From: a virus
Length of the DNA: 42,587 nucleotides
Virus record (IMG/VR): IMGVR_UViG_3300045988_039819
Span: 1 to 42,587 of that record
Direction: 5' to 3' (one strand)
Positions 11,390 through 12,087 of this stretch are shown piece after piece. Under the pieces are notes generated by a model that saw only the letters and a program-made list of their open reading frames with translations, did no database searches and was not told the DNA's origin. How positions within the stretch are numbered: the first letter of the stretch is position 1; each line of letters begins with the position of its first letter. The position numbers and the translations under genes were made by a program.

Positions 11390-11439
11390 TCGTCACCACC
11401 TCTCTTGTCGCATTTTTTTGCTACCAGCCCCCGCCCCTT

Positions 11440-12087
11440 GGCCTTACATAGCAGACTTTCCCCGCCCCGAGGGGCTACTCTATGCCCGCAAGGGGCGTGA
11501 TACTTACACAGTCTCCGGCGCTGCGCTCTGTTCGGCCTGGCCTACACAACGGCCTAATCTCTCGATTGCCGTCACCACGCCACATCCATTTACCGCCTCA
11601 GCCTCCTCGCAAAGACAGCAGCGCCGGATAACCACGGAACTTTTCAGCCCTGCGCCGGTATGTCGGTCGCATCCGTTTCTTTATTCATAGGCCGGAGCCA
11701 GCTAAATAATTATTATTCGGCCTGCCGCTTTCATACAGCGCACAGGCAAGCCCCTTGTAGCGGTCTTACCCTTCCGTGGTGCCGCAATGCGGTAGCATAC
11801 ATCTGGTACGGCATTGCAGTCCTGCCCTGCTTTAGCACTTCAGGGAAAGTCCCCGTCACTCGCTGTGGTCTCCCCTTACGGGGCACCTATGCCGCATATT
11901 GGCCGTCTTTCTCACTTAGATTGTCACACGCTACCGGCAACTACGCTCCGAAAAGTCGTAGCCCCTATTCCGTCAGGTCAAACCGGTCTTGACGCATCAA
12001 GACAAGCGCAGTTTTCAGCGAGCTTTGTCATTTCCATGTGAGCCATGACGACAACGGTCTCACATTGTCCGGGCGCTACCCGGCATC
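11440..12087 (-). ncRNA. Candidate large structured ncRNA (class unassigned; ROOL/GOLLD-like context)
   Basis: About 650 nt with no minus-strand ORF of 60 aa or more, in an otherwise densely coding GC-rich genome. It contains many local hairpins, including CCCC-GUAA-GGGG, GUCUUGA-UGCG-UCAAGAC, GCAAUGC-20 nt-GCAUUGC and GCCUGUgCGCU-7 nt-AGCGGCAGGC. It lies directly 3' of two tRNA-like elements. The ends are not defined. Confidence 0.35.

Follow-up and report, generated by a model that had tools for sequence, protein, structure and literature searches.

GOLLD (RF01998) and ROOL (RF03087) are large, multi-junction RNAs encoded by phages and prophages, often located in or next to tRNA islands, and in GOLLD the 5' part is variable and tRNAs may be embedded (PMC12286853, PMC5737381). 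Theta ribozymes, which are related in fold to the hepatitis delta virus (HDV) ribozyme, have been found in human-gut Caudoviricetes within a few nucleotides of the 3' ends of phage tRNAs (PMC10879173). The present work concerns a stretch of about 700 nucleotides (nt) without a recognizable open reading frame (ORF), at 11400-12087 on the minus strand of a viral genome (IMG/VR record IMGVR_UViG_3300045988_039819; the whole DNA analysed, 42,587 nt, is referred to as the window), where it lies between two tRNA-like genes and the gene terS. A preliminary description had regarded this stretch as a single RNA of about 650 nt, either a member of GOLLD or ROOL or a new large phage RNA. Our analysis bears out that a genuine conserved structured non-coding RNA is encoded on the minus strand, with homologues in hundreds of contigs and compensatory changes, and that its position adjoining tRNA-like genes, between a regulator gene and terS, is a setting shared with GOLLD and ROOL. 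However, the stretch is a mosaic of at least three independently conserved folded RNAs and not one giant RNA: four modules, A1, A2, B1 and B2, are joined here, each of which is found alone and in many orders elsewhere. Membership in GOLLD or ROOL had to be given up, since no Rfam 15 family was matched, even at an expectation value (E) of ≤10.

A mosaic of conserved RNA modules ahead of terS

Loci were gathered from IMG/VR by exact-word scans with one conserved word per part, each of which returned 115 to more than 119 contigs, and profile searches with nhmmer over 331 IMG/VR loci define the four modules (Table 1). These occur separately and in almost any combination, in the 331 loci as well as in at least 120 human-gut metagenome contigs. 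Among the loci, the architectures A1-A2-B2 (40 loci), t-A1-B2 (33 loci) and A2-B2 (31 loci) were found alongside t-B1 (14 loci), t-B1-t-A1 (12 loci) and t-B1-t (12 loci). An independent sample of 120 human-gut metagenome contigs, picked by a different A2 word, contained A1-A2-B2 and A2-B2 38 times each, A2 alone 15 times and A1-A2-B1-B2 10 times, the full arrangement of the window being a minority form (~8% of the A2-bearing metagenome contigs). The modules are also found far from terS, within tRNA arrays of phages of 60-120 kb, and their conservation far exceeds that of the flanking genes. In a contig whose terS-terL region is 82% identical to that of the window, B2 is the only one of the four modules to be kept, and other non-coding modules, with no tRNA, are present upstream of it. 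Absence or variability in otherwise identical phages had been counted in the preliminary description as an argument against a functional RNA; the variability is real, but it marks the modules as accessory cassettes and not as meaningless sequence.

The array is modular, conserved and non-coding, it is constrained at the level of RNA base pairs, and it follows rules of strand and junction. Compensatory base changes were found in all modules, and the observed covariation score was attained in 0 of 500 shuffles. The minus-strand RNA of the whole stretch has a minimum free energy (MFE) z-score of -2.53 compared with dinucleotide shuffles; the modules taken singly gave -2.65 (B, that is B1 together with B2), -2.05 (A1) and -2.36 (A2), and the antisense of A2 gave +0.11. 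We consider homologues in hundreds of contigs with compensatory changes to be stronger evidence for structure than these z-scores. All tRNAs within 500 nt of a module (489/489) lie on the strand of that module, and no locus carries modules on both strands. A CCA directly precedes the first base of A1 in 67 of 94 unique copies, and that of B1 in 39 of 47; between a tRNA and the A1 behind it, the median gap is -3 (an overlap with the CCA; n=98), and between A1 and a following tRNA it is +1 (n=22).

Within the stretch, neither a sigma-70-like promoter nor an intrinsic terminator was found, and no terminator-like site is present between the tRNA-like genes and terS. Among 110 contexts of A2, a terminator follows directly in only 9, and those A2 copies are without CCA; the CCA is thus lost exactly where A2 ends its transcript. 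Copies of this kind end in ...GCCGCACAAUAA (e.g., L324:279-463) and are directly followed by a clear intrinsic terminator (GAGCGGAAGCUCCGCUCUUUUU).

The stretch is non-coding. As described before, it holds no minus-strand ORF of ≥60 amino acids (aa), the longest within 11400-12087 being 36, 43, and 51 aa, and the plus-strand ORFs of 90, 110, and 75 aa, which had been taken for shadows, match no protein family in Pfam or PHROG. A protein-coding gene was dropped as an explanation, given that only 12% of the indels among B1 homologues are multiples of three, that shuffling takes place across ORF boundaries and that no families are matched. The antisense strand of B1 is free of stops over most of its length in about half of the homologues.

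The modules match no catalogued RNA family in Rfam 15, which was searched at gathering score over the whole window and with permissive filters at E≤10 over 11200-12900. The former search returned only two tRNA matches and the latter nothing inside the stretch but noise at E>3; GOLLD, ROOL, HDV-like or other ribozymes, riboswitches, RNase P and transfer-messenger RNA (tmRNA) were all without a match in the stretch. The covariance-model search that the preliminary description had proposed thus produced no large-RNA match. Rfam gave tRNAs only in 12 related arrays (132 kb) and over 15 related loci, and the models of the HDV, hatchet, twister, and hammerhead ribozymes matched neither the stretch nor the 12 arrays. 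Weak YrlA, Plastid-ycf2, and microRNA matches were set aside, since they are artefacts caused by the upstream hairpins and by the two tRNA-like genes standing in tandem. The proposed search for homologues did bring out conserved, covarying ones; the BLASTN matches in annotated phage genomes each cover the stretch only in part. They comprise only three contigs, all unannotated gut 'Bacteriophage sp.' with tRNAs adjacent, and one of them (L002) carries two parts in swapped order (A2-A1). In the literature searched, to which the list of 10,006 RNA candidates catalogued from IMG/VR (PMC10690425) does not belong, no description of the modules was found.

Table 1. Positions of the modules, hairpins and neighbouring genes in the window
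Feature	Positions	Strand	Remarks
Module A1	11896..12087	minus	~192 nt; nhmmer profile match 12090-11897
Module A2	11804..11895	minus	92-nt tRNA-like cloverleaf
Module B1 and linker	11492..11803	minus	nhmmer match 11802-11538; 391-nt RNA together with B2
Module B2	11413..11491	minus	terminal module; nhmmer match 11491-11413
Hairpin UGUGAG/CUCACA	near 12066-12037	minus	
Hairpin GUCUUGA-UGCG-UCAAGAC	near 12001-11984	minus	
Hairpin CCCC-GUAA-GGGG	11883-11872	minus	
Hairpin GCCUGUG-CGCU...AGCG-GCAGGC	11747-11720	minus	
Hairpin GCCC-CUCG-GGGC	11475-11464	minus	
tRNA-like gene 1	12164..12238	minus	Rfam tRNA 36.7 bits; ARAGORN 'tRNA-???'
tRNA-like gene 2	12088..12159	minus	Rfam tRNA 48.7 bits, 9-nt insert in anticodon arm
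Regulator-like small ORF	12672-12364	minus	weak PHROG 'transcriptional regulator' match
terS ribosome-binding site (GAGAGGUGGUG) and GTG start codon	11387..11404	minus	coding resumes here
terS	11389-11018	minus	Terminase_2 match, E 2e-23; GTG start

Folds of the modules and their neighbours

A2 folds into a cloverleaf, which is its MFE structure on the minus strand only. The acceptor stem of 7 base pairs (bp) joins GCGGCAU (11895-11889) with AUGCCGU (11814-11808) and is followed by the discriminator A (11807) and CCA (11806-11804); arm 1 carries a GUAA tetraloop, arm 2 is elongated with a loop of 3-5 nt, and arm 3 (GCAG-GGCAGGA-CUGC) occupies the position of the T arm. In alignment A6, 8 of 28 pairs are changed on both sides, compared with 2.3 in shuffles (0/500 as high), and pairing falls from 97.7% to ~40% when the partners are slid. 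The NCCA end is kept by 33 of 39 copies and, in the independent sample, by 71 of 86, regardless of the following sequence. This acceptor stem, the four-way junction and the 3' NCCA are structural hallmarks of tRNA-like RNAs; the 7-nt anticodon loop and the T-loop consensus of true tRNAs (RF00005) are missing, and neither Rfam at E≤10 nor ARAGORN gave a tRNA match at 11804-11895.

A1 has two conserved 5' hairpins (CCGGG/CCCGG and UGUGAG/CUCACA) and a closing stem (CUCGCU/AGYGRG) around a strongly conserved internal loop (GAAAACU / GUGACAAUCUA), and its central domain is hypervariable, with several unrelated versions. In alignment A3 (38 sequences), 98.2% of the cells are paired and 14 cells show double changes, compared with 2.2 in shuffles (0/500 as high). 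An HDV-like fold at the 5' end of A1 was considered and dropped, as no P1 partner was found in a search by eye.

B1 is composed of a variable 5' hairpin region, the hairpin at 11747-11720, a three-way-junction core, a long-range helix and a hairpin at 11573-11548. Its first ~55 nt exist in three unrelated versions. The core (~11676-11632, ~45 nt) is near-invariant, also in loci chosen via a different part of B1, and its loop varies only from GAAA to GUAA, which keeps the GNRA form. Alignment A4 of B1 is 98.4% paired, with 42 double-change cells vs. 12.8, and 16 of the 80 pairs in the consensus of B (alignment A5) have compensatory changes. In the long-range helix of B (11636-11618 with 11524-11507), 6 of 9 pairs are changed on both sides, and the hairpin at 11573-11548 covaries as well. 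A long-range pairing of the B1 5' end with UGGAUGUGGCGUGGUG was considered in two alternative registers, without clear support for either, and an RNase P-like reading of B on the basis of the motifs GGGGAAAGUCUGC, AACAGAG, and GGUAAG was rejected because of the wrong motif order and the lack of a model match.

B2 consists of the hairpin at 11475-11464 and a stem (11453-11448 / 11424-11419) around the hairpin GGCC-AAGGGGYGGG-GGCU. It is present in 199 of the 331 loci, some of which lack B1, and nearly always closes the series of modules. Between its end and the ribosome-binding site for the first late gene lie ~10-25 nt, and this gene varies (Terminase_2-type terS, GP3_package-type, and others); such a fixed spot upstream of the ribosome-binding site across genomes is the one expected of a cis-regulatory 5' leader. 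The stem covaries (GCUAU/GUAGC vs. GUUAC/GUGAC), via only two or three haplotypes, and B2 alone shows no excess folding energy (z -0.16).

All hairpins of the preliminary description were recovered in the sequence, and an AU-rich stretch is located at ~11717-11702. Only GCAAUGC-20 nt-GCAUUGC (11817-11784) has to be viewed differently, since it is present but spans a module boundary and competes with the better supported acceptor stem of A2.

The flanking tRNA-like pair and terS are as described previously. The MFE structure of tRNA-like gene 1 is a cloverleaf with normal D and T arms, in which a 6-bp stem with a UAAG tetraloop replaces the anticodon loop; no CCA is encoded, the acceptor pair 2:71 is mismatched, and nhmmer found no homologue in the 331 loci. 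tRNA-like gene 2 ends in ACCA, and A1 begins at the next base. Instead of a proper anticodon stem-loop, it has a conserved CCRGGAGG with a perfect Shine-Dalgarno core; the gene is kept in ~49 related loci and its T stem covaries. The frequent ARAGORN call of its copies as tRNA-Trp(cca) is probably wrong. Between the regulator gene and tRNA-like gene 1, two strong hairpins are found at 12244-12330 (minus strand), and the loop of the second one (GGUCCGUCCUCCUUCU) is like the 3' tail of 16S rRNA and complementary to the GGAGG loop of tRNA-like gene 2. The 125-nt piece that holds these hairpins is conserved in only 3 of the loci.

In transcriptional direction, the minus strand thus carries the regulator-like ORF, the 125 nt with the two hairpins, the two tRNA-like genes, the ~700 nt non-ORF stretch, terS, terL, and the portal gene. 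The gene neighbours of the array are helix-turn-helix (HTH) regulators on the upstream side and terS variants, terL, and portal on the downstream side. Upstream of the regulator, the ORF at 12806-13192 (minus strand, 128 aa) combines an HTH_23 domain with a weak match to Terminase_5 (gpP-like), and represents a second small DNA-binding protein just ahead of the array. The ORF at 14089-14832 (minus strand, 247 aa) starts with a long N-terminal Gly/Ser/Asp/Tyr repeat (GSGDGSGDGSGSGYGSGYG...), which locally raises the G+C content to a peak of 73%; upstream of arrays, a related protein is encoded in 29 loci.

The gaps of related arrays hold at least 10 further conserved non-coding families (e.g., L155:2704-2866, L081:6323-6580, L333:4330-4720). 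One gap family, just upstream of the first tRNA or module, has been misread as a spurious 'MSQGIAIMGELSRRGVKAF...' ORF in 108 loci.

The host is probably a gut Clostridia lineage, an assignment that is weak because a scan of species-representative genomes gave only two matches, an Oscillibacter metagenome-assembled genome (MAG) and a probably mis-binned 'Bacteroidales' contig. The relative with 82% identity over terS-terL (L333; SFFY01000016.1, 42,691 bp), which is about window-sized, bears a Bacteroidales MAG label. The contig probably represents a phage genome that ended up in a bacterial MAG during binning, and the label should therefore not be taken as the host.

A possible tRNA-punctuated array and alternative explanations

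We lean towards the view that the locus is a tRNA-punctuated 'RNA island', that is, an array of non-coding RNAs that heads the late packaging operon and might be cut out by tRNA-processing enzymes. The island, with the order tRNA-like 1, tRNA-like 2, A1, A2, B1, B2 and no terminator before the late packaging genes, would be transcribed as a whole into one precursor, either together with the late packaging operon or running on into it. The tRNA and tRNA-like elements, including A2 with its encoded CCA, may serve as punctuation for the host tRNA-processing enzymes, with RNase P predicted to cut on the 5' sides and an endonucleolytic cut to follow the CCA on the 3' sides. A1 (~190 nt) and A2 (~92 nt) would in this way be freed as discrete and presumably stable RNAs, and B (~390 nt), or at least B2, would stay attached to the terS-terL mRNA and form its structured leader or 5' end. 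As to function, our leading guess, held with low confidence, is that the released RNAs manipulate the host tRNA or translation machinery, or act as decoys for tRNA-targeting defence nucleases; it is suggested by the tRNA mimicry, by a sequence conservation that is very high and by the cassette-like spread among phages whose packaging genes differ.

Several points weigh against the punctuated island. Co-transcription, the enzymes of processing and the stability of the products are deduced from sequence and anatomy alone. In Firmicutes, tRNAs with an encoded CCA normally mature through the action of exonucleases, which would destroy the downstream module, so that a precise endonuclease or self-cleavage after the CCA must be assumed. 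Two or three haplotype groups account for much of the covariation, which therefore represents few independent events, and the sampling of loci by exact words inflates apparent conservation. The conservation of B2 could partly reflect a DNA-level signal (late promoter, activator site, or packaging site). Finally, a conserved protein that might be a partner or target was not found near the arrays, where only regulators and packaging genes are present.

One alternative, to which we assign a small probability, is that human-gut phages carry an uncatalogued system of such islands, the tRNA-punctuated arrays being assembled from a stock of at least a dozen structured-RNA cassettes, and that at least one cassette, B with its near-invariant core, acts as a new ribozyme or specifically binds a host factor. 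B could, for example, cut precisely after the CCA and so mature phage tRNAs or their mimics, or neutralise tRNA-targeting defence.

In the same low range we place a mainly cis-acting leader of the late operon, in which the RNA, B2 above all and possibly B1, would act on the terS-terL mRNA through transcription read-through, the initiation of translation or stability at the 5' end, instead of giving rise to free RNAs. This would agree with the nearly constant terminal position of B2, ~10-25 nt away from the ribosome-binding site irrespective of which gene is first, and with the related phage that retains B2 while the upstream modules differ; moreover, a terminator precedes the B2 region in some loci, which makes B2 part of the late transcript. 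However, such a leader leaves A1, A2, and B1 unexplained, which are found in large tRNA arrays far from late genes with tRNAs on both sides. No alternative terminator/antiterminator pair was found, and the lack of extra folding stability of B2 alone (z -0.16) does not favour a leader either.

The cut after CCA that the punctuated island requires keeps alive the idea that A1 and/or B is a new self-cleaving ribozyme, which would cut its own 5' end after the CCA and thereby mature the 3' end of the upstream tRNA or tRNA-like RNA, although no HDV, hatchet, twister, hammerhead or other known ribozyme model matches. The usual exonucleolytic route of CCA-tRNA maturation would not spare a downstream module, and the three-way-junction core of B1 is near-invariant over ~45 nt under independent sampling, as in ribozyme cores. 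The modules start at the base after CCA, a position that is occupied by theta ribozymes (PMC10879173). On the other hand, the first ~55 nt of B1 come in three unrelated versions, which means that the cleavage-site side is not conserved. Neither an HDV-like P1 pairing from +1 nor a nested double pseudoknot was found in A1 or B1, the P1 search having been made by eye only and being a weak test. We regard a ribozyme of this kind as quite unlikely.

Equally doubtful is a single large ornate RNA akin to GOLLD and ROOL, whether as a diverged member or as a sister class, in which all ~700 nt would fold and act as a unit and perhaps form a multimeric cage. The setting in a phage next to tRNA or tRNA-like genes is the same as that of GOLLD and ROOL (PMC12286853, PMC5737381), GOLLD likewise varies in its 5' region, is conserved in its 3' region and in some cases contains tRNAs, and B alone, at 390 nt, is already an RNA with several junctions and a long-range helix. 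Against a single unit stand the lack of any GOLLD or ROOL match, in the stretch at E≤10 and in the 12 related arrays, and the occurrence of modules alone, swapped (A2-A1 in L002), or with tRNAs or kilobases between them. No covarying helix that joins two modules was seen, and the inter-module hairpin of the preliminary description clashes with the acceptor stem of A2.

Packaging signals and late promoters are often located upstream of terS, which is where the stretch immediately lies, and B2 has G-rich runs and very few covariation events, but a DNA-level element (pac/cos, terminase sites, late promoter or activator sites), or decayed tRNA pseudogenes or spacer without RNA function, is highly improbable in view of the pair-preserving double changes in many helices, the strict coupling to the tRNA strand, the strand-asymmetric folding, the presence of modules far from terS in tRNA arrays of 60-120 kb phages and a conservation far above that of the flanking genes.

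Relation to known RNA systems

In its phage packaging setting, and with two tRNA-like genes abutting the stretch, the locus is similar to those of GOLLD and ROOL. It differs from both in that no sequence or structure match exists, in that modules of ~190, 92, 310, and 80 nt occur independently, and in that one module is itself tRNA-like with a CCA end; nor is the stretch one contiguous RNA of ~800 nt with a universal 3' domain, by which GOLLD is characterised. As in the case of theta ribozymes, A1 and B1 mostly start right after a CCA. Theta ribozymes are, however, small minimal HDV-like folds, whereas A1 and B1 are without a match to an HDV-like model.

A2 shares the acceptor stem, the four-way junction, a hairpin in T position and the NCCA end with tRNA-like structures such as the tRNA-like domain of tmRNA, the Y-RNA-like YrlA and the tRNA-like structures of viral RNAs. 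It differs from them in its size of 92 nt with an elongated second arm and in the lack of a match to the tRNA, tmRNA, or YrlA models. In comparison to tRNA itself, the loop of arm 3 reads GGCAGGA instead of the T-loop consensus UUCRANY, and a 7-nt anticodon loop is absent.

The tRNA gene cluster of phage T4 reportedly also encodes stable non-tRNA RNAs, species 1 and 2 (RNAs C and D), and tRNA punctuation is a mode of processing found in mitochondrial transcripts and in MALAT1-mascRNA. The present locus resembles these systems, as they are commonly described, in that structured non-tRNA RNAs are co-oriented with and abut tRNAs, which would be consistent with a release by tRNA-processing enzymes. 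In contrast to the T4 cluster, again going by such descriptions, the modules are larger, many, and shuffled among phages, and A2 appears to be a dedicated punctuation element.

For the annotation of phage genomes, it should be considered that the seemingly 'empty' 0.5-1 kb before terS in such phages is densely packed with RNA genes. The clear rules of the arrays, namely the shared strand, the start after CCA, the tRNA mimic and the module abutting the first late gene, make concrete experiments feasible and could reveal how phages process and use non-tRNA RNAs that are embedded in tRNA arrays. The large RNAs of the GOLLD and ROOL type in phage tRNA islands count among the most poorly understood RNAs of bacteria, and the locus described here adds to this setting several unrelated RNA classes which are abundant in the human gut, being present in hundreds of contigs, some of them with very high coverage.

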